Assembly (NCBI GenBank): GCA_009782785.1
Contig: WRIJ01000009.1
Location: forward strand, 25,111-89,110
Reading direction: 5' to 3'
DNA from: Propionibacteriaceae bacterium
GTDB lineage: Bacteria; Actinomycetota; Actinomycetes; Propionibacteriales; Propionibacteriaceae
Length of the DNA stretch: 64,000 bases
The first letter of the stretch is position 1; each line of letters begins with the position of its first letter. The translations under genes were made by a program, and so were the position numbers. Below, piece by piece: positions 8,067-61,015 of this stretch. The notes beneath the pieces were generated by a model. The model did no database searches, had not been told where the DNA came from, and saw nothing but the letters and a program-made list of their open reading frames with translations.

Positions 8067-8122
8067 CTTCCGGCCAAACGCATACTCACCAACTCCGTCG
8101 TTCTGCGTTCCCTTCCCAGATG

Positions 8123-8271
8123 GTCATTCCGCGGAGGGCACCAGCCCGACTTGGCAGGAATCCAGGTAAACGATCAGCCCTGAAGAATAGTCTGATGGCA
8201 ATGACTAACCACCGATGGTCACCACCAGGGTCAGTGTGATTTCTGGACCCTGCGACTTCGCGCAGGGTGAC
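8123..8271 (+). repeat. Family-A palindromic TIR mini-element, copy A1 (149 bp)
   Basis: Begins GTCATTCCGCGGAG and ends CGCAGGGTGAC (ends fit GTCAYYCYGCG in inverted orientation). Homologous by eye over its full length to 8480-8642 and, reverse-complemented, to 31053-31200. Confidence 0.85.
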
Positions 8272-8280
8272 GGTAGTAGT

Positions 8281-8441
8281 GTCCATTGACCGCAATTGTG
8301 TGATCGGGAGCACGGGTTGTCGTTGCGTTGTGACTCACCATGCAAACCCAGATCAGTGCGTGAAGTAGAGTGACCAGCGTACAAGCGGTCACTACGCGAC
8401 GTTTCTCGACACCCACCATCAGGCGGTAGCGGTCAATAGAC
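8281..8441 (-). repeat. Family-B TIR mini-element, copy B1 (161 bp)
   Basis: Flanked by GTCCATTGACCGC (8281-8293) and GCGGTCAATAGAC (8429-8441), an inverted pair matching at 12 of 13 positions. The reverse-complemented body aligns with 30538-30700. Confidence 0.8.
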
Positions 8442-8479
8442 GACCCGGAACGGTCATTCCGCAGAGCAGTACCAACCAC

Positions 8480-8642
8480 ATCATTCCGCGGAGGGCACCA
8501 GCCCGACTTGGCAGGAATCCAGGTAAACGATCAACCCTGAAGAAGAGTCTGATGGCAATGACTAACCACCGATGGTCACCACCATGGCCAGTATGATTTC
8601 TGGACCCTGCGAGCCTTCGCTTCGCTCAGGCCGCAGGGTGAC
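8480..8642 (+). repeat. Family-A mini-element, copy A2 (163 bp)
   Basis: Direct repeat of A1 about 357 bp downstream. Same arms and body, with a longer loop in the right-hand hairpin. A solo arm GTCATTCCGCAGA lies at 8453-8465. Confidence 0.85.
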
Positions 8643-8750
8643 GGGGGTGGCGTCGACAAGGAACCGTCCCTTTGTGACTCGTGCAGGGAGACGGGGGTGG
8701 TGCTCCGCAGGGTGATGGAGGTGGTGGCGCACAGGGTAATGGAGGTGACC
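8633..8750 (+). repeat. Degenerate tandem array of GCAGGGTGAYGGRGGTGG (4 units)
   Basis: Units read at 8633, 8683, 8707 and 8731. This is the reverse complement of the C-rich arrays at 30706-30790 and 49015-49068. Confidence 0.6.
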
Positions 8751-8841
8751 TCGACCTGCGCTTCAGAGTTTATGGAATCTTTGGTGTCTGAGAGATCCTT
8801 GACTATATTCGTGAGTCGTGAATAAGTCGAAGGGCCCGAAT

Positions 8842-14186: not shown

Positions 14187-15977
14187 ATGTCAAAGATTCT
14201 TGCGGCTGTCGCTTGGCCTTATGCCAATGGTCCGCGCCATATCGGCCACGTCTCAGGTTTTGGGGTTCCTTCAGATGTTTTTGCTCGCTACCAGCGTATG
14301 ATCGGTAACGATGTGCTCATGGTGTCGGGTTCTGATGAGCACGGTACAGCGATCCAGGTGCAAGCAGATCGGGAAGGCCTCACCCCCCAGCAGACTGCTG
14401 ACAAGTATCACTCCATCATCTGTGAAGAGCTTCAACAACTCGGACTCACCTATGATTTGTTCACTCGAACAACCACAAACAACCACTGTGAGGTTGTCCA
14501 AGAGCTCTTCCGAGCCCTGCACGCCAATGGATATGTGGTCCCGCACAAAGGAATGGGAGCTATTTCTCCGAGTACGGGGCGTACCCTGCCTGATCGCTAT
14601 ATCGAAGGAACCTGCCCACTGTGCAAGTCTGAGGATGCTCGTGGTGATCAGTGCAATTCTTGCGGCAAGCAGTTGGATCCCATCGATTTGATCAACCCTC
14701 GATCATCCCTGGATGGGGAGGTGCCTGAGTTTGTTGAAACTGAGCATTTCTTTCTCGATCTTCCTGCACTGGCGCAAACACTGCGCACATGGTTGGATAC
14801 TCGCCAAGATTGGCGTCCCAATGTGTTGAACTTCTCGCTCGAATTGCTCAAGGATCTCAAGCCTCGAGGGATCACCCGCGACCTGGATTGGGGGATTCGT
14901 GTGCCCATTGATGGATGGCGCGACAATCCGATGAAATCTATCTATGTCTGGTTTGATGCGGTCATCGGCTACCTCTCTGCGTCAATAGAGTGGGCTCTGC
15001 GGCAAGGAGACCCGCAAGCATGGCGCGAGTGGTGGCAGAATCCTGAAGCACAGTCGTACTATTTCCTCGGCAAAGACAACATCACCTTCCATTCGGTCAT
15101 CTGGCCAGGGATACTCTTGGGCGCTAATGGTCAAGGGGATCGTGGTGGGGAACCCAGCACTTTTGGCGAGCTGAATCTTCCCACAGAAGTGGTGTCATCA
15201 GAGTTCCTCATGATGGGTGGTGGGAAGTTTTCCACCTCCTACAACAGAGTGATTTATGTCCGTGATTTCTTGAAAGAGTTTGGCCCAGATGCACTGCGTT
15301 ACTACATTGCTGTGGCCGGGCCGGAGAACACTGACACTGTGTTCACTTGGGAGGAGTTTGTTCGCCGTATCAACACTGAACTGGCGAACGAATGGGGTAA
15401 CCTCGTTAATCGCTCGATTTCTATGGCACATAAGAACAATGGAGTTATTCCCACCCCTGGTGAGCTCACCGAGATTGACACTCGAGTTTTGGACACTGCT
15501 CGTCAAGGCTTTGAGGTGGTTGGTGATCTGCTGTCCAAGGCAAAGTTCAAGGCGGCGATCACTGAAGCAATGCGGGTAGCATCTGCAGCTAATCGTTACC
15601 TCTCCGAAACTGAACCGTGGAAGCTGAAAGATAATCCAACTCGCCGAGATACTGTCTTACATACGACTCTCCAAGTGGTCAGTGATGTCAACACCATGCT
15701 CACGCCTTTCCTTCCTCACGCCTGCCAGAAGGTGTACGAAGCCTTGGGGGGTACGGGAGTGTGGGCTGCACAGCCAGAGATTCGCCACGTCAGTGAGGAC
15801 GGCCAAGACCCCTATCCGATCTTAACTGGTGACTATGATTCGCAATTGGCTTTTTGGAAGTCTATCCCTGTTGAGGTTGGCCGGGTGTTGAACAAACCGG
15901 AACCGCTCTTCCCGAAACTGGATGAGTCCTTGGGTGAAACTGGCCCATCATGGGCACCCATATCTGTCGATGGTTGA
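14187..15977 (+). CDS. metG: Methionine--tRNA ligase
   Basis: 596-aa ORF with [13 protein letters not shown] (HIGH), Zn knuckles CPLC...CNSC, and a KFSTS (KMSKS-type) loop. Confidence 0.95.
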
Positions 15978-16009
15978 TTATCTATCGGTGGTTGATGCAC
16001 TCCCTCCTT

Positions 16010-16059
16010 GTCACCCTGCGGAGCCCACTAGGGCGACTCGCAGTGCTCCGCGGAATGAC
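16010..16059 (-). repeat. Minimal family-A-related element (50 bp): both arms joined by a 24-nt core
   Basis: GTCACCCTGCGGA-gcccactagggcgactcgcagtgc-TCCGCGGAATGAC. The same core occurs at 35238-35273 and, reverse-complemented, at 46246-46281. A further solo arm (GCTTCGCTCCGCAGAATGAC) lies at 16101-16120. Confidence 0.75.
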
Positions 16060-16137
16060 GGGAGAGGCGCGGCGGTTTTTGCGAGTGCCAGCCGGTCAAG
16101 GCTTCGCTCCGCAGAATGACAGGGCTGGTGCCATCAG

Positions 16138-16926
16138 TTACAAGAAGAGATCACCCACGAAGGGGGCCAGCAGTGCGTACCCCACAAAGGCAAAGATATC
16201 CATGAGTGTGTGGGCAATCACGAGGGGCATCACTCTCTTAGTTTTCAGATAGATGAGTCCAAAGACGGCACCCATGACCAGGTTTCCGAGAAAGCCACCA
16301 AACCCTTGATAGAGGTGATAACTTCCACGGATCGTGGCTGAGAAGAAAATGATTGCTGCAGGTGCCCAACCAAGAGTCTTCAAGCGAGTGAAAAGATAAC
16401 CCACCATGACAACTTCTTCACTGACCCCAGCAACCAGTGCAGAACAAATGAGTATCGGAATAGTCCACCAGTGGGCGTCCAGATTTGCTGGGGCAACCTC
16501 AGTGTTGATCCCGATCCATCGGGAAAGAAAATAGAATCCCAGCCCAGGGATTCCTATCCCTGCACAGATAGCTACACCCCATCCGAGATCCTTCCATGGC
16601 TGGTGCAGGTTGAATCCGATCAGTGAGCGCGCTTGGCCGTACCCCAGGTAGAGCAGGTACAACACCAGCAGTACGAGGGCTGTCGGGGTGAGGAAGAAGT
16701 AGAGCTGATAACCGAGATCCAACCATGGCCTACTGGGGGTCATGGAGGAGTTCATGGTGGTGGTTTGGTCCGCTAGGGGAACTCCACGGGTGAGTTTTTC
16801 GATGATGGACAGCATTGCTGAGATGGCGCTTCGTCCAAAACCTACTCCCAGCACGATGAGAATCTCTAGTGCAATGAAGAGGCGAACTCTGCGGGAACGC
16901 TGGTCTAAGTGGTGTTGGCCCTCCAC
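16138..16926 (-). CDS. CPBP family intramembrane glutamic endopeptidase (CAAX protease-like)
   Basis: 262-aa polytopic ORF with the EEVVMVGY (EExxxR-like) motif, FSATIRGSYH and HTLMD. Confidence 0.8.
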   Translation of the reverse strand: MEGQHHLDQRSRRVRLFIALEILIVLGVGFGRSAISAMLSIIEKLTRGVPLADQTTTMNSSMTPSRPWLDLGYQLYFFLTPTALVLLVLYLLYLGYGQARSLIGFNLHQPWKDLGWGVAICAGIGIPGLGFYFLSRWIGINTEVAPANLDAHWWTIPILICSALVAGVSEEVVMVGYLFTRLKTLGWAPAAIIFFSATIRGSYHLYQGFGGFLGNLVMGAVFGLIYLKTKRVMPLVIAHTLMDIFAFVGYALLAPFVGDLFL

Positions 16927-27674: not shown

Positions 27675-27903
27675 GGGAGCTGTGCGAGGTCACCCACCTG
27701 AAACCATGTTCATGGCGATCATTGTGCTGGGTGCCTCTGTGTGTAGGAGCCGTGCCATGGCGCTGGACAATTCCTGCTAATCTTGATGGTGTGCAACAGT
27801 GAGTACCGCTTGGAGTCATTCCACTAGGGGGGCTTTCTCAGCGTCGGCAGTGTGTAGTGCACTGGCGAATTTGTCGCGATTGAACAAGGGAAGGACCCAT
27901 TTC

Positions 27904-28281
27904 ATGACATCAAAAATCTCCACAGTGAGAAAAACTCTCGTAGCAGCAGCCCTTGCAGTATTTGTCGCACTCCCATTGTCGGCCTGTGGCAGCACATCCG
28001 ATGACCCTATCGTGGGCAAGTGGGAAGTCATAGAAGTAGATGGAAAATCTATCGACATGATAGCATGGTCCATGTCTATTGATTTCAAGGCAAATGGGAA
28101 ACTGATAGCAATCCATTATGGTGACAAGATCACAGGAACTTGGACTACCGAGGGTACGAAAGTGACTATCAAGGATTCCCGGGAAACCATGGTCTGCGAT
28201 TACACGGTTGCAACAGGAAAGCTCATGCTTAATGACTGTGATGGCGTGGTTGGATCGTCGTTGACACTCGTACCAGCGTAG
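27904..28281 (+). CDS. Lipoprotein, lipocalin-like (paralog 3)
   Basis: MTSKISTVRKTLVAAALAVFVALPLSACGS lipobox, with GGGAAGGA upstream of the ATG at 27904. The N-terminal extension of the track ORF from 27799 is unlikely. Confidence 0.75.
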   Translation: MTSKISTVRKTLVAAALAVFVALPLSACGSTSDDPIVGKWEVIEVDGKSIDMIAWSMSIDFKANGKLIAIHYGDKITGTWTTEGTKVTIKDSRETMVCDYTVATGKLMLNDCDGVVGSSLTLVPA

Positions 28282-28354: not shown

Positions 28355-28589
28355 TCAACTGGGTAGAACGAGCTGGTGATGGAAAGCTCAGCTCTTGTGG
28401 GATGCTACCGAGGTGGGTGTCTCTGTGTGTAGGTGCTGTGCCATGGCGCTGGACAATTCCTGCTAATCTTGATGGTGCGCAACAGTGAGTACCGCTTGGA
28501 GTCATTCCACTAGGGGGGCTTTCTCAGCGTCGGCAGTGTGCAGTGCACTGGCGAATTTGTCGCGATTGAACAAGGGAAGGACCCATTTC

Positions 28590-28967
28590 ATGACATCAAA
28601 AATCTCCACAGTGAGAAAAACTCTCGTAGCAGCAGCCCTTGCAGTATTTGTCGCACTCCCATTGTCGGCCTGTGGCAGCACATCCGATGACCCTATCGTG
28701 GGCAAGTGGGATGTGACTGAAGTAGAAGGAATATCTATCGCCGGGTCAGGTACATCCATGTCTTTCGAATTCAAGGCAAACGGGAAAATGACAGCCACGA
28801 CCGACGGAGACAAGGGCCAAGGAACCTGGACTGTCGCTGGGAACAAGGTGACTATTAAGGATCGCGAAGAAACCATGGTCTGCGATTACACGGTTGAAAC
28901 AGACAAGCTCATGCTCAATGACTGTGATGGTTTGGGTGGCCTGTCGTTGACACTCGTACCAGCGTAG
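28590..28967 (+). CDS. Lipoprotein, lipocalin-like (paralog 4)
   Basis: Same signal peptide and lipobox as paralog 3. The mature core is diverged. Confidence 0.75.
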   Translation: MTSKISTVRKTLVAAALAVFVALPLSACGSTSDDPIVGKWDVTEVEGISIAGSGTSMSFEFKANGKMTATTDGDKGQGTWTVAGNKVTIKDREETMVCDYTVETDKLMLNDCDGLGGLSLTLVPA

Positions 28968-30546: not shown

Positions 30547-30700
30547 CCGCAGTTGCTTGACGGTGAGTGTCTAGAAACATCGCGTAGTGACTGCTTATGC
30601 GCTGGTCACTGTTATTTCTCGCACTGATCTGGTGAGGTTTGCACGGTGAGTCACAACGCAACGATTTCATGGGCACACTGCTAGGCAGTCGCGGACCGAC
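30538..30700 (+). repeat. Family-B TIR mini-element, copy B2 (about 163 bp)
   Basis: Starts with GTCCATTGACCGC, identical to 8281-8293, and overlaps the last two sense codons and the stop of gltX. The body aligns with the reverse complement of 8281-8441. The right end is degenerate. Confidence 0.78.
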
Positions 30701-30705
30701 TGTAT

Positions 30706-30790
30706 CCCCACCCTTGTCACCCCGCAGAAGAAACACCCCACCCCCGTCACCCTGCGGAGCGAAGATCGCCCCACCCCCGTCACCCTGCGG
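30706..30790 (+). repeat. Tandem array (3 units, about 25-34 bp) of CCCCACCCCCGTCACCCTGCGGA
   Basis: Units read at 30706, 30731 and 30765. The last unit merges into the arm of the next family-A copy. Confidence 0.65.
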
Positions 30791-30949
30791 ACGGGTGACG
30801 AGCTAAGCGAGGAACACCGTCTCGCAGGGTCCAGATATCACAGTCATCATGAGTAAGAGTCTGCCTAACCCGTCCACCATCAACAGACTCCACAACCATG
30901 GTTAATCGCCTGTCTAGATTCTGCGAGTCGCTTCGCTCCGCAGAATGAC
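30779..30949 (-). repeat. Family-A mini-element, copy A3 (171 bp, long-loop hairpin variant)
   Basis: GTCACCCTGCGGACGGGTGACGAGCTAAGCGAGGAACACCGTCTCGCAGGGTCC ... GGATTCTGCGAGTCGCTTCGCTCCGCAGAATGAC. The long hairpin differs by one base from the one at 49069. An extra partial arm lies at 30962-30979. Confidence 0.8.
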
Positions 30950-31052
30950 AGGGTTGAGGGTGTCGCTCCGCAGAATGACGTGGAAGGTGTCACCCTGCGG
31001 AATCACGCTGCACCTCCGTCACCCTATGAATGAGCGAAGACCACCAACCCCG

Positions 31053-31200
31053 GTCACCCTGCGCGAAGTCGCAGGGTCCAGATATCACACTTGCCATGGT
31101 GGTGACCGTCGGTGGTGGGTGATGCTCCCCAGACTCTTCTTCGGGGATCTCGCTGATCTGGATTCCTGCCAAGTCGTGCTGGCGCACTCCGCGGAATGAC
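31053..31200 (-). repeat. Family-A mini-element, copy A4 (148 bp)
   Basis: Its reverse complement aligns over the full length with A1 and A2 (8123-8271, 8480-8642). Confidence 0.85.
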
Positions 31201-31234
31201 AGTTTCGAGTCATCCATGGACCACTTCGTACCGT

Positions 31235-32979: not shown

Positions 32980-32988
32980 CGAGGGTGG

Positions 32989-33080
32989 GTCATTCCGCGG
33001 AGTGCGCCAGCACGACTTGGCAGGAATCCAGACTAGTGATCAACCACAATGACCGAGTCTGTCAATGATCACCGGTGGGT
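32989..33080 (+). repeat. Family-A mini-element, truncated copy (left arm plus body, no right hairpin)
   Basis: GTCATTCCGCGGAGTGCGCCAGCACGACTTGGCAGGAATCCAG... matches the reverse complement of 31150-31200. It starts 10 nt after the glnS stop and ends about 17 nt before the purC start. Confidence 0.75.
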
Positions 33081-34903: not shown

Positions 34904-35008
34904 ATGGGAACACAAAAGGTACAGGTGGTTTCAAGTGGTCATTGCATCATGCACGGTTTGTGGGTCTAATAATAGTTGTTGGAAGGTTTCTGTGGCTTTC
35001 CTTGCCTA

Positions 35009-35281
35009 GTCATTCCGCGCCAGCGCGCCAGCGCGACTCGCGGAATCCAGGCTCCACAATCACCACGGTTGTGGAGTCTGTTCATGGTGGTTACATTCGG
35101 GAGACTCACCAATCCGCTTAATGTGATTCCTGGATTCTGTTTCTCACTCCGTTCGTTCAACCACTTCCTTGACCTCGACATGAATGCAAGCATCCCTGCC
35201 CTCGGTCTTCGTCGTGGTGCGAGTCGCGAAGCCTGTGCTGCGGAGCCCGCTAGGGCGACTCGCAGTGCTCCGCAGAATGAC
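35009..35281. repeat. Repeat island: about 273-bp element bounded by two GTCATTC(C/T)GCG arms in inverted orientation
   Basis: Left arm GTCATTCCGCG-ccagcgcgccagcgcgact-CGCGGAATCC. Internal hairpin CTCCACAA-N9-TTGTGGAG. Right part carries the core CTGCGGAGCCCGCTAGGGCGACTCGCAGTGCTCCGCAGAATGAC. An extra GCAGAATGAC lies at 35288-35297. Confidence 0.75.
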
Positions 35282-35311
35282 GGAGAAGCAGAATGACGGG
35301 GTTGGGGTGGC

Positions 35312-35554
35312 TCAGCGGTTTTCGGGGAGGGATTCCCAGATTTCTTTACATTCGGGGCACACCGGGTATTCCTGGGGGTTGCGGGATGGAACCCAGATTT
35401 TTCCGCATAAGGCAACGACAGGGGTACCCATGACCATGGCTTCGGTGAGTTTCTCCCGCGTCACATAGTGAGAGAGGCGCTCGTGGTCTTGGGTGTCCTC
35501 CCTCACCGTCTCACGTTCGAGTACGGTGGTGGATCCTGGGGCTAGCTCACTCAT
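35312..35554 (-). CDS. DUF3039 domain-containing protein
   Basis: 80-aa ORF. HYVTREKLTEAMVMGTPVVALCGKIWVPSRNPQEYPVCPECKEIW matches the conserved actinobacterial DUF3039 pattern as I recall it. Confidence 0.72.
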   Translation of the reverse strand: MSELAPGSTTVLERETVREDTQDHERLSHYVTREKLTEAMVMGTPVVALCGKIWVPSRNPQEYPVCPECKEIWESLPENR

Positions 35555-45215: not shown

Positions 45216-45808
45216 GTGATGAACAGGCATGTGGGGACAGCGTCGACCCTCATGTGGGTGACCAATCGAGCAATGGTGGGGGGCTCACGCCTGGCGATGC
45301 CGATATTGTCACCAGGCAGTTGGGGCGTACTCCCAGAGGAGCAGTGAAAGTCGCATGGCGATGCCCACAAGGGCACCCTGGCGTGGTGATGACGAGGCCG
45401 CGTTTGAGCGATGGCACACCCTTTCCCACACTGTATTACCTCACCTGCCCGGCAATCGTGAAAGCATGCTCGACCTTGGAAGCTGACGGTTTGATGGCTT
45501 CGTTGACTGCGCGTTTAACTGACGATGTTCAATTCGCTGCGGCGTACGGACAAGCCCATGACTCCTATCTGGTGGATCGTGAAACTTTGGCTCAGGAATT
45601 GGGGATCGAGGTGCCAGAGATTTCAGGGATTTCGGCTGGCGGAATGCCATCGCGGGTGAAATGCTTGCACACTGTGGTGGCACACAGTTTGGCCAAGGGA
45701 CCTGGTGTGAATCCTTGTGGGGATGAGGCCTTGGAGGCCATCGGAGTCTTTTGTCGATCGGGGTGTGCCCAGGTTTGTGGGCCTGCTAGTGAGCGAGAGG
45801 TGTCATGA
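45212..45808 (+). CDS. DUF501 domain-containing protein
   Basis: 198-aa ORF containing RCPQGHPGVVMTRPRL..GTPFPTLYYLTCP. Conserved eno/FtsB-like/DUF501/ppx synteny. Confidence 0.8.
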   Translation: MSDEQACGDSVDPHVGDQSSNGGGLTPGDADIVTRQLGRTPRGAVKVAWRCPQGHPGVVMTRPRLSDGTPFPTLYYLTCPAIVKACSTLEADGLMASLTARLTDDVQFAAAYGQAHDSYLVDRETLAQELGIEVPEISGISAGGMPSRVKCLHTVVAHSLAKGPGVNPCGDEALEAIGVFCRSGCAQVCGPASEREVS

Positions 45809-46899
45809 GAGTAGGGGTTATTGATTGTGGTACGAACACCACCAGGATCCTCATCTGTGATGGGGATGTTTCCGGGGTTCCTCAAGAGGTTGTGAGGGAG
45901 TTGAGATTTACCCGGTTGGGGGAGGGGGTTGATCGAAGTGGGAGTTTCACTAGTGACGGGCTGAAGCGTACTTTTGCGGCTGTTGAAGAATATGCTCAGA
46001 TGTTGGAGGCGTACCAGGTGGACACGGTACGTTTTGTCGCAACCTCAGCTGCCCGCGATGTACACAACCGTGAAGATTTTATTAGTGGGGTGAGAACCCG
46101 CCTGGGTATCGAACCGGAGATTATCTCAGGCGAGGAAGAGGCATACTTGAGTTTTCTTGGAGCACTCACTTCTTCCGCCATGGCATCCGATCCACCTCTG
46201 GCTCCGGTCACCTTGTGTGAAGCGGAGCTCCCTCCGGTCACCCTGTGGAGCACTGCGAGTCGCCCTAGCGGGCTCCGCAGCGCAGGCTCCGCGACTCGCA
46301 GGGTCCACGATCAACCACCAAACAACGATCAATCGGTCCTCGTCGTTGACATCGGTGGTGGGTCAACCGAACTGATTCGCGGGTTCCTCTCGGGGCGCCT
46401 CGAATCGAGAGTCAGTCTTGATATGGGGTCAGTTCGTCTTCGTGAACGGTACCTTCACGGTGATCCACTCACTGTTCCCCAGATCGATCAAGCACGAAGC
46501 TTCGTTAGTGAGCTACTGGATGGTTGTGGTGTTGCCATCGGCGATGTGGATGTCTTTATTGGAGTTGCAGGTACGTTGACTTCACTGTCGGGTATGAACC
46601 AATCTTTGGATTCTTATGATCGTACGAAAGTACACAATTCCACCCTGGAGGTGGATGACATCTTAACCCTGCAGGAGCACTTGTTGACCTTGAGTGTGGA
46701 TGAGGTCATCAACCAGTATCCGAGTCTCCCAGCACCACGCGCCGAGGTGATTGGTGCTGGAGCACTCATTGCTAGCGAGATTGCTCGCAGAGTCGGGCGT
46801 ACGATGATTGTTCGCGAAACAGATATTTTGGATGGTGCTGCCATGCAACTCTTCAGAGAGCCGCGATCGTCCACATGGCACAAGCCCATCGAGGTGTGA
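45805..46899 (+). CDS. ppx: Ppx/GppA family phosphatase (exopolyphosphatase), carrying an in-frame repeat-derived insertion
   Basis: 364-aa ORF containing VIDCGTNTTRIL, GEEEAYLSFLGA and LVVDIGGGSTEL. The segment at 46207-46306 matches the intergenic repeats. Confidence 0.87.
   Translation: MRVGVIDCGTNTTRILICDGDVSGVPQEVVRELRFTRLGEGVDRSGSFTSDGLKRTFAAVEEYAQMLEAYQVDTVRFVATSAARDVHNREDFISGVRTRLGIEPEIISGEEEAYLSFLGALTSSAMASDPPLAPVTLCEAELPPVTLWSTASRPSGLRSAGSATRRVHDQPPNNDQSVLVVDIGGGSTELIRGFLSGRLESRVSLDMGSVRLRERYLHGDPLTVPQIDQARSFVSELLDGCGVAIGDVDVFIGVAGTLTSLSGMNQSLDSYDRTKVHNSTLEVDDILTLQEHLLTLSVDEVINQYPSLPAPRAEVIGAGALIASEIARRVGRTMIVRETDILDGAAMQLFREPRSSTWHKPIEV
46207..46306 (-). repeat. Family-A-related repeat segment inside the ppx coding sequence
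   Basis: Carries two GTCACC(T/C)TGTG arms and the core GCACTGCGAGTCGCCCTAGCGGGCTCCGCAG (reverse complement of 35240-35270 and 16018-16048). Ends CGCGACTCGCAGGGTCC. Confidence 0.8.
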
Positions 46900-46915: not shown

Positions 46916-46988
46916 GCCCCCATAGCCCAACGGCAGAGGCAGTCGACTTAAAATCGATCCAGTGTCGGTTCGAATCCGACTGGGGGCA
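46916..46988 (+). tRNA. tRNA with anticodon UAA (nominally Leu) but a class-I fold (5-nt variable loop)
   Basis: Manual cloverleaf: acceptor GCCCCCA/TGGGGGC, D arm GCCC-AACGGCAG-AGGC, anticodon arm GTCGA-CTTAAAA-TCGAT, variable loop CCAGT, T arm GTCGG-TTCGAAT-CCGAC, discriminator A. CCA is not encoded. Confidence 0.72.
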
Positions 46989-47618: not shown

Positions 47619-48032
47619 CTAGACGAATGGGTTGATGACGACAATTCCGTTGTAATCCTGTCCGTGGGAAAGGTCTTCCGACAGGAGTTGTTGACATCCG
47701 CTAGCCCGGGCGGCTTCGATGATCCCTGCATCCCAGTACGACACACCGAATTGTTGCCTCGTGTGCAGAGCACGGCGCATCACGGTAAGGGTGTTGGCTT
47801 GAATAGGGAAACGGGTGAAAGACTCAACAAATTGTGTTGCTTGCTCATGGGTGAGTGGATCAGTGCGCGTTGCTCTAGTCGCCTGCACATAGAACTCTTG
47901 AAGCACCTGGACAGATAGGGCGATCCCACCGTCTTCTAGGATTCCACGGGCAATGGTTGCCTTGGGTTCTTCCTGATCGTCGCGCGATATCGCGTACAGT
48001 AGAATATTGGTGTCACAGAAGCGCACGGTCAT
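47619..48032 (-). CDS. vapC: Type II toxin VapC (PIN domain ribonuclease)
   Basis: 137-aa ORF with the PIN acidic residues in context (FCDTNILLYA..., ...LLSEDLSHGQ). Confidence 0.85.
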   Translation of the reverse strand: MTVRFCDTNILLYAISRDDQEEPKATIARGILEDGGIALSVQVLQEFYVQATRATRTDPLTHEQATQFVESFTRFPIQANTLTVMRRALHTRQQFGVSYWDAGIIEAARASGCQQLLSEDLSHGQDYNGIVVINPFV

Positions 48033-48345: not shown

Positions 48346-48418
48346 TGGAGCTAACGGGATTCGAACCCGTGGCCTCTTCCATGCCATGGAAGCGCGCTAC
48401 CAACTGCGCCATAGCCCC
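48346..48418 (-). tRNA. tRNA-Ala (anticodon GGC)
   Basis: The reverse complement folds as GGGGCTA-TG-GCGC-AGTTGGTA-GCGC-G-CTTCC-ATGGCAT-GGAAG-AGGCC-ACGGG-TTCGAAT-CCCGT-TAGCTCC-A. The G3:U70 Ala identity pair is present. Confidence 0.95.
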
Positions 48419-48498: not shown

Positions 48499-49008
48499 AT
48501 GCCACGACCGAAGAATTCCACTGAGTTGATTGAAGCTGCCACCAGCGAGTACGACAAGCTTATGGCTCTCGTCACCTCGATCCCAGCCGAACAACAAGAA
48601 CTTGAGTTTGCTTTTGAGGACCGTGATCGCACAGTACGCGACGTACTAGCTCATTTGAGCGAATGGCACTACATGATGAGTAGGTGGTACGACCAGGGGA
48701 TGTCTGGCGAGAAGCCCATTATGCCGGCTGATGGGTACACGTGGAAAACACTTCCCGAACTCAATTTGAGAATTTGGGAAGAAGCCCAGGAGATCCCACT
48801 CGATAAGGCCCGAGCAGAACTCGACGAAACCCACCAGGTCATGATGACCCTGATCACCCACCACAGCGATGAGGAACTGTTCACCAAGAAGTATTATCCA
48901 TGGACGGGTACGACCTCGCTGGGTGCGTACCTCATCTCTTCGACCTCCAGCCACTACGACTGGGCTTCTAAGAAACTGAAGAAAGCCATCAAAACCTGGA
49001 AGGGCTGA
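48499..49008 (+). CDS. ClbS/DfsB family four-helix-bundle protein (DUF1706)
   Basis: 169 aa from the ATG at 48499, with AGGAGGGAGG upstream. Contains ...ELIEAATSEYDKL..., DVLAHLSEWH and EELFTKKYYPWTGTTSLGAYLISSTSSHYDWASKKLKK. Confidence 0.72.
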   Translation: MPRPKNSTELIEAATSEYDKLMALVTSIPAEQQELEFAFEDRDRTVRDVLAHLSEWHYMMSRWYDQGMSGEKPIMPADGYTWKTLPELNLRIWEEAQEIPLDKARAELDETHQVMMTLITHHSDEELFTKKYYPWTGTTSLGAYLISSTSSHYDWASKKLKKAIKTWKG

Positions 49009-49068
49009 CATTTACCCCGCCCACCAGTCACCAACTTTCCCCGTCACGACGTACGTGCCTCCATTTTT

Positions 49069-49237
49069 GTCACCCTGCGGACGGGTGACGAGCGAAGCGA
49101 GGAACACCGTCTCGCAGGGTCCAGATATCACACTGACGACGGTGGTGACCGCCGGTGGTTAATAGTCGCCAGCAGACTCACTGTCGTGGTTGATCGCTTG
49201 TCTGGATTCCGCGAGTCGCTTCGCTCCGCGGAATGAC
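49069..49237 (-). repeat. Family-A mini-element, copy A5 (169 bp, long-loop variant)
   Basis: The body and left-hand arm are identical to 49502-49650 except for one base seen by eye (T/C in GGTTGA(T/C)CGC). Preceded by degenerate C-rich units at 49015-49068. Confidence 0.85.
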
Positions 49238-49248
49238 CGTTCTGGGTC

Positions 49249-49490
49249 GTTCATTGACCGCGACCCCCTGGTGACGAGTGTCTTTAAACGTCGCGTGGTG
49301 ACTGTATCTCTGTTTTCGTCACCCACAGACTCACCAGTGGTGGCAAACCGTTTGTCTGGATTCCGCGACTTTGCGCGGAATGACGGATATGGGTCACACT
49401 GTGCACATCATGGCCGTATCGTCTCCATGGAGGTGAGTGACAACGCAGCGATTCCTCATGGTCACTGTGGAGCAGTTGCGGTCGGTTGGC
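49249..49490 (+). repeat. Family-B mini-element, copy B3, interrupted by a partial family-A insertion (about 49318-49384)
   Basis: Ends are GTTCATTGACCGC and GCGGTCGGTTGGC. Internal blocks GTGTCTTTAAACGTCGCGTGGTGAC and GGTGAGTGACAACGCAGCGA match B1/B2. The nested hairpin is GGATTCCGCG-ACTTTG-CGCGGAATGAC. Confidence 0.7.
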
Positions 49491-49501
49491 ACTCCACTCA
49501 C

Positions 49502-49650
49502 GTCACCCTGCGGAACGAAGTGACTCGCAGGGTCCAGATATCACACTGACGACGGTGGTGACCGCCGGTGGTTAATAGTCGCCAGCAGACTCACTGTCGT
49601 GGTTGACCGCTTGTCTGGATTCCGCGAGTCGCTTCGCTCCGCGGAATGAC
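49502..49650 (-). repeat. Family-A mini-element, copy A6 (149 bp)
   Basis: Near-identical to A5 apart from a shorter hairpin loop. Confidence 0.85.
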
Positions 49651-49710
49651 AGGGTATGTCGCTTCGCTCCGCGGAATGACAGGGTATGTCGCTTCGCTCC
49701 GCGGAATGAC
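49628..49710 (+). repeat. 30-bp tandem repeat, 2.8 copies (GTCGCTTCGCTCCGCGGAATGACAGGGTAT)
   Basis: Perfect abutting copies at 49628, 49658 and 49688 (the last is truncated). They reiterate the arm of copy A6. Confidence 0.9.
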
Positions 49711-49861
49711 CGGTGAGGGGCAGTGCCGCCCACCATGGATGAGTGCGGTATGCGGAATGACTGGGTGGTGACTGCCAGTGCTAACGGGAGCGAGGTTTAA
49801 CGAACGTGGGAGTATGTCATCGTTTAATTGATCGTTGACACGGGGTTATGTCAGCGATTTC

Positions 49862-50302
49862 TTACTGGCAGTTGACAGCATCTTCCAAGCAAGCTGGGAA
49901 TATCGGATTGTTTTGGTCGTACCCGCATTCCGAGTATCCATTCCAATTGAGGCGGTATTTTCCTGCTGCGACTGCTTCTTCAAGACTCCCGACGTGAATT
50001 ACAGAAGAGCCGTTCTTGAAAGCTCCAATGAGGTTAGCGTCGATAAGCTCATCAGCATCCAAGATGCCATTCAGATTATTGTCCTTGTGGGAACACAAGT
50101 GATAAACGGAACCCTTCTCAACCCAATAGACCTCACAATTCTGCGAGAAAGCACAAGCAACCCTCTGCATCTCGGTCATATTCTCGACTGATGTCGGGTT
50201 ACCTGCCGAGCACCCACTGGCAAGCATCATGAGGATTCCTGCAGTCGTTGCTAGGAGTGTACGGGTGACAAGGGATCGGCGTGAAGAAGAGTGATTGTTC
50301 AT
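49862..50302 (-). CDS. Cys-rich lipoprotein, unknown function
   Basis: 146 aa from the ATG at 50302. Lipobox MMLASGCSAG. 7 further Cys residues in the mature part. Confidence 0.6.
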   Translation of the reverse strand: MNNHSSSRRSLVTRTLLATTAGILMMLASGCSAGNPTSVENMTEMQRVACAFSQNCEVYWVEKGSVYHLCSHKDNNLNGILDADELIDANLIGAFKNGSSVIHVGSLEEAVAAGKYRLNWNGYSECGYDQNNPIFPACLEDAVNCQ

Positions 50303-57360: not shown

Positions 57361-57441
57361 TTTCCTGGTTGGTCAATGGATTCTGCGACTGCGCGCAGAA
57401 TGACGGGGGTGGTGGATCCTGCAGGTCCCTGAGCAGGGATA
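57336..57441 (+). repeat. Perfect 24-bp direct repeat (CCTGCAGGTCCCTGAGCAGGGATA at 57336-57359 and 57418-57441) flanking a solo repeat arm
   Basis: The 58-bp spacer contains GGATTCTGCG-ACTGCG-CGCAGAATGAC followed by GGGGGTGGTGG, which is the family-A arm plus the G-rich motif. Confidence 0.85.
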
Positions 57442-57443
57442 AT

Positions 57444-60400
57444 CTATTCGCTGCGTAGCGCTTCGACTGGATCTTTACGGCTTGCTGCTGAACTGGGAAT
57501 CAACCCAGCGAGGAAGGTCAGCGCCATGGACACCGCAATGAGAATGAGGGCGGCGTTGAGAGGCAACCGAGCGATACGATCCACGTCGGTGAGTTTATAG
57601 ACCAACGGATTGGCAATGATCGTCAAACCTAGGGTGATGAGTACACCCATGAGCCCGGCAACGAAACCAACAATGAGTGTCTCTGCATTGAATACATTAC
57701 CTATGTCGCGTTTGGAGGCACCGAGTGCTCGCAGGATGCCAATCTCTTTACGCCGTTCCAACACGGAGATGTAGGTGATGACCCCGATCATAATAGAGCT
57801 CACCACCAATGAGATAGACACGAAGGCAACAAGCACTGCTGAAATCTTGTCAATGATGTCGGTCACAGAGGTCATGAGAGTCCCGACAATATCGGTGTAC
57901 GTAATGACTTTGTCTTCGTCTTCTTTCTTCATCCGGTCGTTGTAGGAGTCGAGAGAATCCAGGACAGCTTGTTTGGCTGCGAAGTCATTGGGATAAATAT
58001 CGATCGAGTACGGGTCGTCAAGTTCTGCGTACCCCAAAGTCTGAAGATTAGACTCCACACTGTGGCGCTGGCGGTTCATCATGGACATCAGCAGTGAGGT
58101 CAACTGTTCAGGGTCAAGATCAAAGTCGAAAATGTCTGCGAACCTTTGTGGGTCAATATCCATCGCCGACGACAGTTGGCTGGTGAGTTGGCTCATGGAT
58201 GCTTGCATAGCGATCGACAATTGGCTCTGGAGATTGCCCATCATGGAAGTGAGCATGGTTTGCATGGTGGTCTGCATGTATCCAGCAAGGGCTTGGGAAG
58301 CTTGAGCTTCGAGTGTGTCGGTGTTGATGGTGTTCATCAGCCGCCCCATGAATACTGCCTGGTTCTGGGGTTGGTTGAACCATTCTGCAAAGGAGCCGCC
58401 AATATCGCCGGGAAGATTAGGCATAGTGGTGGGGAATTCGCTCGGCATTGAGGTCGGTAACCCCGTGGGCAGCGAACTGGGTAGCGCTGTGGGCCCCGTG
58501 GTGGGCAGTGCAGTGGGCAGCATAGTGGGGGCACTCGTCGGATCACCAGTGGGATCCCCAGTAGACCCAGGATCACTAGGTTCGCTGGAGGTTTGAGCAG
58601 ATGGCTCAACCGATTGCTGCGGCAAGGCTGAGGGGGAAGGTTGGGTGGGAGTCGTAGGGTCGCTTTGGGGGGCAGGAGGAATCACTGGCAGGGTGGCGGA
58701 ACCCATGGTGTCTCGCAGATAGTCAGAAAGGGTTTGGGTGAGTAAATCTGTGAGTGCTTCATCAGAGACTTCGATGCTCATTCCTGAGAGCATGGCAGTT
58801 AAGTCAGGGGGTGGAACCTGCGGCATAGACCCACTCATACTCGACAGATCCATTGACCCTAGTGAGGGCCCTGAAGGCATCGACAACCCAGAGAAGTCGA
58901 CATTGAACATTGAACCGAAAGCATCCGCGTCGATATTGAGCAGCGAAGAGAAATCAAAGTCGCCCATCCCAGGGTTCTCTGCTTCCTCCTCAAAGGTTAT
59001 TCCAGAAAAAACATTCAGCTCCGGGTTAGCCAACTGGGCGCGTACGATATCGGAATCAGCGGCTTGGTCAATGAGGTGGTAGACCATGCTCATGGGGTAG
59101 TACAGTCCCGGCCGGAGCATCACATTCGTGGAGTCTTCCGCAGAGGTCACCACACCCACAACCCTCAGTGTTGTTCCAGAAGAAACCACATACCTCATCC
59201 AGGTCTCGTCATTGCTACGATCAGTCCAGAGCTTGTATTTCGCGTCGTACTCGTAAAACCTGGCCGCATTGACAAGCTTGAAGGTCACCGACATCACATC
59301 GTCATAGGACAATCTCACCCTATTATCTGGAGTGTGAATAGGTTTATTCTCACTCATGTCCTGGATCATCTGGTCCAGCTCTGCAGGATCACGTAGACCC
59401 ATGGTGTAGAGGGCCATATCCGAAATGCCCCCAGAGCCAGTCACGACGAGAACGAGCTCATCAGGGCCTTGAGGCCAACGGCCAGCCAGGACGTCGTACT
59501 GGTCGGATATCAATGACATGTCATCGGGTAGTGAATTGAACACATTGGTCGTCATGCCCATATTCATCAGTGCTGAGGATGAATCACCACCAAAACCTAG
59601 GGAGGTAAACATCTTGTTCGGGTTGACCTGGCGTACTTCGTTGGTGGTGTCGGTAGAAAAAATCTGCGGGGTGACGTTGTAGTTGTATTGAATTGACCGT
59701 ACGTGGTCACTGATCCCAGATTCGGGAGAATCGAGATAGGTTTTCAAAGACTTTAAATCATTGGAGGCGACCTCTGAGAGCATGCGGGTGATCATGGCAA
59801 CCTCATGGAGGTCCGAATCTCCAGTGTCGTGAATAGAGTCGTGGATGTCCTGACCTGCCATGATCATACTTGTCATGTCGATGCCTTGGGTCTGGATTTG
59901 TAGAGGATAAAGCGAGAGAGTGTTTTCCTCCACCCCACGAATATAGGCATTAACCCCGTTAGCCAAGGCGAGGATCGTGGCAATGCCAACAATGCCAATG
60001 GATCCAGCGAAACTGGTCATGAGGGTGCGACCCTTTTTCGTCATGAGGTTTCTGAAACTCAAGGAAATAGCGGTCAGGAAGCTCATGGAGGTGCGGCGAG
60101 CTTTCTTCGCATGGCGGACGTTGCTGTGTGGATGGTACGGGTCGGTGTCATCAACGACTTTTCCATCGCGCAGAGAAATAGTTCGAGTGGCGTACTCTTC
60201 AGCTAGTTCCGGGTTATGGGTGACCATGATCACCAAGCGCTGTTGAGCAATATCCTCAAGCAGGTTCATCACATGAACGCCAGTTTTGGAGTCGAGAGCA
60301 CCCGTGGGCTCATCAGCGAGAAGGATTTCAGGGTCGTTGATCAAGGCGCGGGCGATAGCCACGCGTTGCATCTGACCACCAGAGAGCTGATTGGGGCGTT

Positions 60401-60809
60401 TGTAGATGTGTTCACCCAGATCGACTTGGTGGAGGGCGGCTTTGGCGCGGCGAGTACGCTCTGCTTTGCTCACCCCCGACAAGGTGAGAGCGAGTTCCAC
60501 GTTGGCGAGAACAGTTTGGTGGGGAATGAGGTTGTAGTTTTGGAAGACGAAACCGATGCGATTATTTCGGTAGGTGTCCCAGTCCCGATCGGAGTATTTC
60601 CGCGTGGAAACATCATCAATAATGAGGTCCCCCGCGTCAGCGTGATCCAATCCGCCCACGATATTAAGCATGGTGGTTTTGCCTGAACCCGAAGGGCCAA
60701 GGATGGCGACAAATTCGTTGTCGCGGAAAGTAACACTCACTCCATCGAGGGCAGCTTGAGTAAAAGAGCCAGTACGATAGGTCTTGTGAACATTGTCTAA
60801 ATGGAGCAC
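57444..60809 (-). CDS. Fused ABC transporter ATP-binding / FtsX-type permease protein (MacB-like) with a very large extracytoplasmic region
   Basis: Walker A GPSGSGKTT, signature LSGGQMQR and Walker B LLADEPT. Then one TM helix, roughly 730 aa including a Pro/Thr/Ser-rich stretch and a Met/Gln/Ser-rich stretch, and a C-terminal FtsX 3-TM module. I chose the GTG at 60809; the track ORF extends to 60908. Confidence 0.85.
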   Translation of the reverse strand: MLHLDNVHKTYRTGSFTQAALDGVSVTFRDNEFVAILGPSGSGKTTMLNIVGGLDHADAGDLIIDDVSTRKYSDRDWDTYRNNRIGFVFQNYNLIPHQTVLANVELALTLSGVSKAERTRRAKAALHQVDLGEHIYKRPNQLSGGQMQRVAIARALINDPEILLADEPTGALDSKTGVHVMNLLEDIAQQRLVIMVTHNPELAEEYATRTISLRDGKVVDDTDPYHPHSNVRHAKKARRTSMSFLTAISLSFRNLMTKKGRTLMTSFAGSIGIVGIATILALANGVNAYIRGVEENTLSLYPLQIQTQGIDMTSMIMAGQDIHDSIHDTGDSDLHEVAMITRMLSEVASNDLKSLKTYLDSPESGISDHVRSIQYNYNVTPQIFSTDTTNEVRQVNPNKMFTSLGFGGDSSSALMNMGMTTNVFNSLPDDMSLISDQYDVLAGRWPQGPDELVLVVTGSGGISDMALYTMGLRDPAELDQMIQDMSENKPIHTPDNRVRLSYDDVMSVTFKLVNAARFYEYDAKYKLWTDRSNDETWMRYVVSSGTTLRVVGVVTSAEDSTNVMLRPGLYYPMSMVYHLIDQAADSDIVRAQLANPELNVFSGITFEEEAENPGMGDFDFSSLLNIDADAFGSMFNVDFSGLSMPSGPSLGSMDLSSMSGSMPQVPPPDLTAMLSGMSIEVSDEALTDLLTQTLSDYLRDTMGSATLPVIPPAPQSDPTTPTQPSPSALPQQSVEPSAQTSSEPSDPGSTGDPTGDPTSAPTMLPTALPTTGPTALPSSLPTGLPTSMPSEFPTTMPNLPGDIGGSFAEWFNQPQNQAVFMGRLMNTINTDTLEAQASQALAGYMQTTMQTMLTSMMGNLQSQLSIAMQASMSQLTSQLSSAMDIDPQRFADIFDFDLDPEQLTSLLMSMMNRQRHSVESNLQTLGYAELDDPYSIDIYPNDFAAKQAVLDSLDSYNDRMKKEDEDKVITYTDIVGTLMTSVTDIIDKISAVLVAFVSISLVVSSIMIGVITYISVLERRKEIGILRALGASKRDIGNVFNAETLIVGFVAGLMGVLITLGLTIIANPLVYKLTDVDRIARLPLNAALILIAVSMALTFLAGLIPSSAASRKDPVEALRSE

Positions 60810-61015
60810 TGTTATCCATCCCCTCGCATCGTGAACTCTGCTGTGAAAGCGGTATTGAAAACACAATTCTACCGTGAATTGGGGGTTCGCGGCGATCGAT
60901 GTACACAAGGTTAGGGGTTATCTCCGTGGAGCCCCTGAGCAGCAAACACCGCCTGACACGGAGTTCTGCCACCTTTCGGTACACTGGGAATCTGAATACA
61001 CAAGAGGGGTGAGCG

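Follow-up and report, generated by a model that had tools for sequence, protein, structure and literature searches.

We found that the ppx/gppA gene of an uncultured Propionibacteriaceae bacterium contains a palindromic repeat inside its coding sequence. The gene lies in a 64-kb stretch of DNA (the window, by which we mean the whole stretch that was analysed) of a metagenome-assembled genome (MAG) from a gut metagenome; the exact Ppx protein is annotated as Propionibacteriaceae at NCBI. The insert in this gene is repeat DNA, it is absent from the orthologs, the reading frame remains open across it and the catalytic motifs are intact, and copies of the same family lie in frame in other genes of related bacteria. 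Very probably, a non-autonomous palindromic repeat similar to the repetitive extragenic palindromes (REPs) was inserted in frame at the interdomain linker of Ppx and is tolerated there as a loop. The original prediction had interpreted the segment in this way, and our results support its interpretation.

The repeat insert and the Ppx protein

The ppx/gppA open reading frame (ORF; 45805-46899, plus strand) encodes 364 aa, and its ATG overlaps the stop codon of the upstream DUF501 gene; the gene order is eno (enolase)-divIC-DUF501-ppx. The protein matches the Pfam family PF02541 (Ppx/GppA) with an E-value of 5.6e-47, and this match is split into two stretches. The best solved homolog is PDB 3cer from Bifidobacterium longum (E 3e-49), which aligns to residues 3-125 and 178-334 of the query and itself has only about 9 residues between these two blocks. 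Both the Pfam and the PDB matches are interrupted at residues ~125-177. The length of the linker between the LSFLGAL and VLVxDIGGGS motifs was measured in an alignment of 77 Ppx sequences, which included the window protein and left out four orthologs with long linkers (P0006, P0018, P0019 and P0073). It turned out that the linker is 9 aa long in 50 of the 77 sequences, and 8-22 aa long in all of them except the window protein, where it reaches 56 aa. The excess over the modal ortholog is about 47 aa (141 nt). The original prediction took the linker to be normally short, and this was borne out; the estimate of 35-40 added residues was slightly low. The long linkers left out of the alignment are unrelated in sequence.

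The alignment contains 59 invariant columns, among them D7, G9, N11, E112, D182, G184-G186, S187, T188 and E189. The window protein has the motifs DCGTNT (7-12), GEEEA with the catalytic Glu (109-113) and DIGGGSTE (182-189), that is, the DxGxN phosphate 1 motif, the catalytic E and the DxGGGS/T-E phosphate 2 motif of a two-domain Ppx/GppA protein of the ASKHA type. The AlphaFold2 model, built with the ortholog alignment, has an intact two-domain Ppx fold with a mean predicted local distance difference test (pLDDT) of 88 and a predicted template modelling (TM) score of 0.86. Both domains have a pLDDT above 95, and the blocks outside the insert reach 92-99. Residues 121-176 are coil with a pLDDT of 34-63, located between helix 109-120 and strand 177-183. 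A Foldseek search with this model gave a TM-score of 0.85-0.88 to 3cer and matched other Ppx/GppA structures too. In the model, the insert thus forms a disordered loop in the segment that joins domains I and II, in agreement with the surface loop that had been envisaged. The Ppx/GppA enzyme family uses domain movement.

The repeat-derived DNA was delimited by BLASTN. Matches from 85 other copies of the family span positions 46193-46329 of the plus strand and are densest over 46232-46308. These ~137 nt encode most of the extra loop (residues ~130-175), and their length agrees with the 141 nt obtained from the linker excess. The family arms and core that had been described at 46207-46306 are indeed there: GTCACCTTGTG at 46207-46217, GTCACCCTGTG at 46237-46247, CGCAGGGTCC at 46297-46306 and the 31-nt core GCACTGCGAGTCGCCCTAGCGGGCTCCGCAG at 46250-46280. 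The core is present in two other places on the minus strand, as an exact copy at 35238-35268 and as a copy with a single mismatch at 16016-16046. This makes three matches in the window versus 0.00 expected from 100 dinucleotide-preserving shuffles. Both of these copies had been noticed before, with coordinates (35240-35270 and 16018-16048) that were 2 nt too high. In gapped alignments, 46232-46300 is 91% identical to 35285-35218 over 69 nt, and 46220-46280 is 82% identical to 16077-16016 over 62 nt. The reading frame of 45805-46899 stays open across the segment, between GEEEAYLSFLGAL and VLVVDIGGGSTEL, and its translation is the one quoted in the original prediction.

The insert consists of two units on the plus strand. 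The first one is a half element of 30 nt (46206-46235) with the tag GGTC, a degenerate stem arm ACCTTGTG and a spacer GAAGCGGAGCTCCCTCCG. It is supported by an alignment to 31014-31061, and it starts 30 nt upstream of the second unit, which is the period of the intergenic tandem units at 49638/49668/49698 and 30937/30967. The second one is a full-length unit of the subfamily that we call family A (46236-46307). It has the tag GGTC (46236-46239), the left stem ACCCTGTG (46240-46247), a loop of 49 nt (46248-46296), the right stem CGCAGGGT (46297-46304) and the tail CCA (46305-46307), and its loop holds a nested palindrome formed by CTGCGAGTCGC (46253-46263) and GCGACTCGCAG (46291-46301). The stem is the 8-bp pair ACCCTGYG/CGCAGGGT, and the tag and tail follow the pattern (C/G/T)GTC and CCA seen in the element. 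Over 93 nt, this unit is 91% identical to L156, a contig from the same metagenome as L002, which in turn is identical to the window; its layout is repeated in 51 related actinobacterial copies. The predicted RNA fold of 46196-46320 has an energy of -58.2 kcal/mol (z -2.8). We dismissed an intrinsic terminator, as no T-run follows the hairpin, and an intein or intron, as there is no Rfam intron match and no extra protein domain. Other ORFs cross the insert in other frames at 46157-46375 (plus strand) and 46126-46332 (minus strand).

An imperfect 9-nt direct repeat, CGATCCACC at 46188-46196 and CGATCAACC at 46308-46316 of the plus strand (120 nt apart), was read from the sequence, with no statistics attached, and may be a target-site duplication. 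[quoted passage not shown]

The long linker could also be a native, lineage-specific expansion of the loop, with a resemblance to the repeats that is coincidental or arose by copying outward from the gene. The four Propionibacteriaceae proteins left out of the alignment have linkers of 20-50 aa, unrelated in sequence to that of the window, and repeat motifs are absent at the linker DNA of P0018 and P0019, the only two of them read as DNA. This variation indicates that the loop tolerates length change generally; the linker sequence of the window is nonetheless repeat DNA. It is 91% identical to intergenic copies, and it has the full tag-stem-loop-stem-tail anatomy, which is found in dozens of copies in related genomes. 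Elsewhere the same element is read within other genes, in different frames and in either orientation, which does not fit an origin from ppx coding sequence, and the copies found by BLASTN carry no ppx-flanking sequence, so they are not fragments of a ppx pseudogene. A native expansion is hardly credible.

An assembly artefact also has to be considered, since the window comes from a repeat-rich MAG, and repeats of 70-130 nt are near the read length and can mislead assemblers. However, both flanks belong to the same gene in the same frame and are collinear with the orthologs, unlike a chimeric join, and two different relatives have inserts at the same place. Over 19-21 kb, the window is matched at 100% identity by a contig of a JGI metagenome (3300002505) and by one of an ENA assembly (ERZ27257320), although the two assemblies were possibly built from shared raw reads, so that their agreement is not fully independent. 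Neither a frameshift nor a stop, which had been considered as signs of a pseudogene, is present in ppx. We regard an artefact as highly improbable.

If a REP-like element was inserted, the events may have been as follows. The element, made of a half unit and a full unit with an expanded loop, would have entered the DNA coding for a short surface linker between domains I and II, after helix 109-120 and before the strand bearing the DIGGGSTE phosphate-binding motif. Since the length of the insert is a multiple of three and it has no in-frame stop, it would be translated as an unstructured loop of ~47 residues, leaving both catalytic domains and every invariant residue intact. The element may have arrived by transposition-like copying, by a mechanism that recognises the hairpin, and selection would have kept only insertions at tolerant, loop-coding sites. 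Judging by the sequence, the Ppx protein of the window would be made and active.

The ppx gene in the sister lineage

A syntenic congeneric MAG, Nt197P3bin23 (L003), allows the window to be compared with a close relative. The proteins encoded next to ppx in this MAG are 67-95% identical to those of the window, but its Ppx is only 51% identical. REP units of this family also sit in the ppx genes of Nt197P3bin23 and of a second contig, L099, a close variant, at the linker that is occupied in the window (L003 10001-11170 and L099 5001-6104, open frames of 367-389 aa). The insert of Nt197P3bin23 is larger than that of the window, and part of it runs in the opposite direction. Within it, CTGGACCCTGCGACTTCGCGCAGGGTGAC, which the window has at 8241-8269, occurs twice. 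Different units thus occupy the same ppx linker in the sister lineage, and two variants of dnaE differ at the same two sites (see below). It would seem that a copy already in place draws in further copies or is reshaped by recombination among copies.

Several observations weigh against a harmless insertion of a REP. The ppx genes of L003 and L099 are without the VLVVDIGGGSTELI strand, and the sister proteins P0027 and P0021 lost DIGGGSTEL at the repeat site. Between L003 and L099, which are near-identical strains, the rate of synonymous substitution (dS) of ppx is 0.08-0.16 with a nonsynonymous-to-synonymous ratio (dN/dS) of 0.23-0.52, and dS of eno is 0.003. Apparently, in the sister lineage the insertion of repeats accompanies the decay of ppx. 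No close relative offers an empty site: among the ppx genes that lack an insert, the nearest reaches only 53-55% identity, and the insertion event is therefore deduced from distant orthologs. The length of the ppx linker varies in a few other Propionibacteriaceae without this repeat. The candidate target-site duplication is at best the imperfect repeat of 9 nt, and the ppx copy carries the tag GGTC and not CGTC. The loops of the family are at least 6 nt long versus 4-5 nt in the published families of REPs with a CGTC tag. No REP-associated tyrosine transposase (RAYT) was found by tblastn in ~1.2 Mb of loci and the window, which is a weak negative, as the E. coli query was unverified and the sample small.

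These data bring up another explanation, namely that the insertion is real but ppx is already a decaying and non-functional gene in this clade, and its frame is open merely because repeat DNA is poor in stop codons. The loss of DIGGGSTEL, the dN/dS values and a divergence above that of the neighbouring genes in the sister ppx fit this explanation, as does the low identity of the window Ppx to its congener. In addition, the element is free of stops in most frames, so that an open frame says little about selection. At the same time, the window Ppx retains all 59 invariant positions, its ORF is not shortened and its start codon overlaps the stop of the preceding gene, and AlphaFold2 models both domains with the high pLDDT given above. 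The window Ppx averages 57% identity to other Propionibacteriaceae Ppx, the outgroup, which is nearer to the 60-63% that these share among themselves than to the 53% of the sister protein. The low identity between the window and the congener can be attributed to acceleration on the branch of the congener. In the protein database, the window Ppx has no relative closer than 55% identity except the exact sequence. We read the sister-lineage ppx as a gene under relaxed constraint or one that has lost its function, and the sequence of the window ppx gives no such sign. Decay of the window gene is, in our opinion, unlikely. The divergence of the sister ppx itself could reflect a decaying gene or a recombination patch.

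The insertion of a tolerated REP-like element into ppx would provide a test case, in which a small and well-understood enzyme with solved homolog structures bears ~47 repeat-derived residues at a two-domain hinge. Two outcomes can be compared: the insertion in the window appears to be tolerated, and the sister genome lost the phosphate-binding strand at the repeat site. Genes of this kind may be mis-called as frameshifted or hypothetical, and P0027 is in fact annotated at NCBI as a 'hypothetical protein'.

Copies of the repeat in genes of relatives and in the window

The insert had been expected to belong to a dispersed family, and the copy counts agree with this: there are 31 tag-plus-stem units in the window and 51 copies of the subfamily in related contigs. 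The latter were obtained by scanning metagenome contigs with the family-A core and keeping the non-redundant actinobacterial copies; the majority stem from the metagenome that yielded MAG Nt197P3bin23, a member of a higher-termite gut MAG set. A scan of genome contigs with the 28-nt hairpin described below gave at least 94 loci. The samples of 51 family-A copies and 94 repeat clusters overlap. Matches of the metagenome scan to L101, L105, L108 and others were dropped on inspection, as they belong to a conserved soil-metagenome gene that fits the pattern by chance; the single matches L111, L118, L127 and L142 were also dropped, and the Pseudonocardia match of the genome scan (L027) looks like a chance match within unrelated sequence.

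In congeneric termite-gut relatives, the repeat lies in frame in genes for DnaE, GcvT, an N-acetylglucosamine (GlcNAc)-2-epimerase, a class I/II aminotransferase, an ATP-binding cassette (ABC) ATPase and a bPH_2 membrane protein. One contig has three in-frame copies in dnaE and another has two, and the shared sites differ in their repeat content. The repeat breaks the Pfam domain of GcvT into two and that of the GlcNAc-2-epimerase into three stretches, and in the ABC ATPase 246 residues extend across a Pfam profile of 137 positions. In total, about 7 of the 51 family-A copies and about 11 of the 94 repeat clusters in the sampled loci are in frame (about 12-14%). The consensus element is free of stops in 5 of 6 frames, and genes use at least 4 different frames in both orientations. 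This indicates that the encoded peptide is not conserved and that the tolerance of the frame is a property of the DNA. In a different ppx, that of P0018 (Propionibacteriaceae, L098 1489-2598), a second insertion adds ~36 aa close to the C-terminus (...LLDAPQSVLPPLRSGPVLCGDPEKTRLRIPEDGNQV...). Its DNA holds CCGCTTCGCTCCG and CAGAATTCCAGA, which recall degenerate units of the family.

The simplest form of the element is a 28-nt hairpin, GTCACCCTGCG-CGAAGT-CGCAGGGTCCA. Larger loops of 13, 20, 33 and 49 nt arise via nested palindromes, and a second stem type, ATTCTGCG/CGCAGAAT, usually stands tail to tail with the first type. Among 64 short hairpins from related MAGs, the tag is CGTC in 48, TGTC in 9 and GGTC in 7; 60 have the CCA tail, and CGAAGT (6 nt) is the commonest loop (45/64). 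The units of the window carry CGTC (12), TGTC (9), GGTC (8) or AGTC (2). After some family-A cores the right arm is replaced by a conserved module of ~80-90 nt. This was observed at 35140-35240 of the window (minus strand) and in L104, L122, L129, L135 and L152. In the relatives the module reads ...caccacgacgcagaccgagggca..gcttgc..catgccgaggtcaaggaagtggttgacgaacgaagtgagga, and in L122 it is translated in frame within dnaE.

All multi-unit clusters of the window except the ppx pair are intergenic. The copy closest to the ppx insert (35218-35285, minus strand) lies just past a minus-strand stop codon and is the one that is 91% identical over 69 nt. The second intergenic family-A copy (16016-16077, minus strand) is located between the convergent ORFs 14187-15977 (plus strand) and 16138-16926 (minus strand), and the predicted RNA fold of 15995-16135 (minus strand) has an energy of -65.4 kcal/mol. 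A cluster at 8100-8745, between ORFs that end at 8031 and start at 8818, combines the ACCCTGCG and ATTCCGCG stem types of the REP superfamily. Another cluster, at 30700-31210, includes the canonical 28-nt hairpin GTCACCCTGCGCGAAGTCGCAGGGTCCA at 31053-31080, and the cluster at 49060-49770 comprises three tandem units of 30 nt and a 127-nt segment repeated 413 nt apart. Further intergenic clusters are found at 15990-16137, 32985-33050 and 35010-35300. An Rfam search of the whole window at the gathering threshold, and of 48900-49900 at E<=1, returned only two tRNAs and no repeat family.

A solitary canonical unit, CGTC-ATTCTGCG-CGCAGT-CGCAGAAT-CCA, occupies 57377-57405 of the minus strand, also between ORFs, 39 nt downstream of an ABC transporter ORF (57444-60908, minus strand). 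It is flanked by two exact 23-nt copies of ATCCCTGCTCAGGGACCTGCAGG (57440-57418 and 57358-57336, minus strand). This sequence is a small hairpin in itself, just downstream of the transporter gene. The pair could be an unusually long insertion duplication or a duplicated terminator.

Since the repeats are poor in stop codons, ORFs run through them. In the window, ORFs of 68-149 aa cross repeats at 34966-35415 (minus strand), 34976-35296 (plus strand) and 49190-49549 (plus strand), and at the two positions given above for the ppx insert. We judged long ORFs through clusters (L011, L039, L055, L107, L141 on the plus strand, and 34966-35415 (minus strand) and 49190-49549 (plus strand) of the window) to be spurious, because the repeat DNA is stop-poor and no conserved protein sequence could be recognised on reading the translations. 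Such ORFs will probably be reported as hypothetical proteins by gene callers, and they deserve distrust in annotation.

Comparison with known repeats and possible spread between phyla

For the published repeats we relied on Di Nocera et al. 2013 (PMC3733652) and on PMC10969869. According to the former, REPs of the CGTC superfamily have the tag CGTC or TGTC (CCTC is accepted), a stem of 8-9 bp whose first and second positions are A-T, a loop of 4-5 nt, with exceptions in some species, and a CCA tail. They are divided into the families CGTC-1 to CGTC-4, and RPE-4 and RPE-6 of Rickettsia conorii (RPE, Rickettsia palindromic element) and dRS3 of Neisseria are placed in the same superfamily (PMC3733652). 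The element described here shares with them the CGTC/TGTC tag, an 8-bp stem starting with A-T, the CCA tail, a high copy number with dimers and clusters, a mainly intergenic location, downstream of ORFs or between convergent ones, occurrence in distant phyla, and intragenic copies (PMC3733652). Intragenic REPs are reported as frequent in replication and repair genes (PMC3733652), and the presence of dnaE among the hosts fits this preference.

The agreement with the CGTC REPs is incomplete. In the family as a whole, the tag, the CCA tail, the copy number and the intergenic position correspond to the published definition, whereas the GGTC of the ppx copy is not a listed variant. The ATTCTGCG/CGCAGAAT stem follows the A-T rule at both positions, and the ACCCTGCG/CGCAGGGT stem, which is the ppx type, only at the first; its second position is C-G, which differs from the CGTC REPs as they are described (PMC3733652). 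The loop is 6 nt (CGAAGT) or 13-49 nt and thus falls outside the published range. Because this length does not suit the four published families, we assign the element to a probably new family related to the CGTC REPs, inside their superfamily or next to it, rather than to CGTC-1 to CGTC-4.

The resemblance to RPEs, suggested in the original prediction, turned out to be closer than was thought, as the CGTC-like tag, the 8-bp stem and the CCA tail recall the superfamily of RPE-4 and RPE-6; the link is based on the published placement of these two among the CGTC REPs (PMC3733652). RPEs (Ogata et al. 2000, as cited in PMC10969869 and PMC3733652) are found both between genes and in frame within unrelated housekeeping genes, whose products thereby gain a peptide at a place that suits the fold. 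They affect several genes per genome, including dnaE. All of this applies to the repeat described here as well. There are differences too. The hosts of RPEs are obligate intracellular alphaproteobacteria, and here the host is an actinobacterium, a gut member of Propionibacteriaceae. Each RPE reportedly encodes a conserved peptide, whereas the element studied here is read in at least 4 frames and its peptide is not conserved. Unlike with RPEs, only one gene is hit in the 64-kb window. Thus, by its in-frame insertion at fold-compatible sites in several genes the element behaves like an RPE, which does not by itself make it one.

Like the REPs and bacterial interspersed mosaic elements (BIMEs) of E. 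coli, the repeats are short imperfect palindromes in mosaic clusters of alternating orientation, with two stem variants that allow G-U pairing on one strand (ACCCTGCG and ATTCTGCG in our case). The E. coli elements have a GTAG tag and an associated RAYT gene, and here the tag is CGTC-like. According to PMC3733652, GTAG REPs are mobilised by the RAYT transposase, and CGTC REPs have no known dedicated transposase. In-frame fusions with host genes are also documented for ERIC/YPAL, for BOX, RUP and SPRITE of pneumococci and for cyanobacterial MITEs. However, these are longer, unrelated in sequence to the element described here, and equipped with terminal inverted repeats as well as target-site duplications. 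In many cases they inactivate the gene that they enter or lengthen one of its ends instead of forming an internal loop.

In-frame palindromic repeats as such are known: PMC10969869 and PMC3733652 document RPEs as well as intragenic REPs with a GTAG or CGTC tag, the latter from several Proteobacteria and Verrucomicrobia. The novelty lies in the host group, the variant with the expanded loop and the ppx target. The original prediction knew of no description for actinobacterial repeats. This holds as far as it can be checked: the five phyla named in the 2013 survey do not include Actinobacteria (PMC3733652), our literature searches turned up no account of this family or of palindromic repeats lying in frame in actinobacterial genes, and six 11-mers of the element matched only unrelated primers in full-text literature. 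With our results, selfish palindromic DNA within coding genes, known from Rickettsia and from a few Proteobacteria and Verrucomicrobia, is now also on record for a gut lineage of actinobacteria.

The 28-nt hairpin is not restricted to this lineage. It occurs in the at least 94 genome-contig loci mentioned above, compared with ~4 chance matches by our own calculation. The hosts, with identical stem, tag and tail, include Thiopseudomonas (among them the isolate T. denitrificans X2), Rhodanobacteraceae, Alcanivorax, Aeromonas and Geobacter, and also Desulfobulbaceae, Hyphomicrobiales, a Patescibacteria MAG and Ruaniaceae KH17 (among L004-L097). The hairpin is often followed by a second one, GGATTCTGCGACT...CGCAGAATGAC. 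A search of viral contigs for the 28-nt hairpin gave 0 matches and hence no indication that phages carry it. Such near-identity of sequence across phyla suggests either strong constraint on a recognition site or a spread of the element from phylum to phylum, and it bears on the question of what mobilises REPs of the CGTC type.

More tentatively, we consider a broader scenario, possible but rather doubtful, in which housekeeping proteins of termite-gut Propionibacteriaceae were colonised on the scale known for RPEs, the hairpin is shared across phyla, and sites once hit nucleate further insertions. If this is true, the sharing of the hairpin would imply a very strongly constrained recognition site for a mobilising enzyme or a recent spread between phyla, and the ppx linker and the two dnaE sites would be insertion nuclei that give rise to rapidly evolving protein loops.

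Many copies of the hairpin are also present in a MAG titled 'Rickettsia typhi isolate ME-21oct19-15' (CAMAYG01; L006, L029, L031, L038, L066 and L068). Its G+C content is 38% in the three contigs measured (L006, L029 and L038). The G+C content of R. typhi is ~29%. The label of this MAG is probably wrong.

Some features of the window lie apart from the repeats. Two tRNA genes are located at 46916-46988 (plus strand) and 48346-48418 (minus strand), the first of which begins 17 nt past the ppx stop codon, and between them there are a PIN-domain ORF (47619-48032, minus strand) and small unannotated ORFs. A direct repeat of 300 nt with 98% identity, its copies 686 nt apart (27728-28027 and 28414-28713), overlaps two ORFs of 160 aa (27799-28281 and 28485-28967). 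It looks like a tandem gene duplication with no relation to the REP family.

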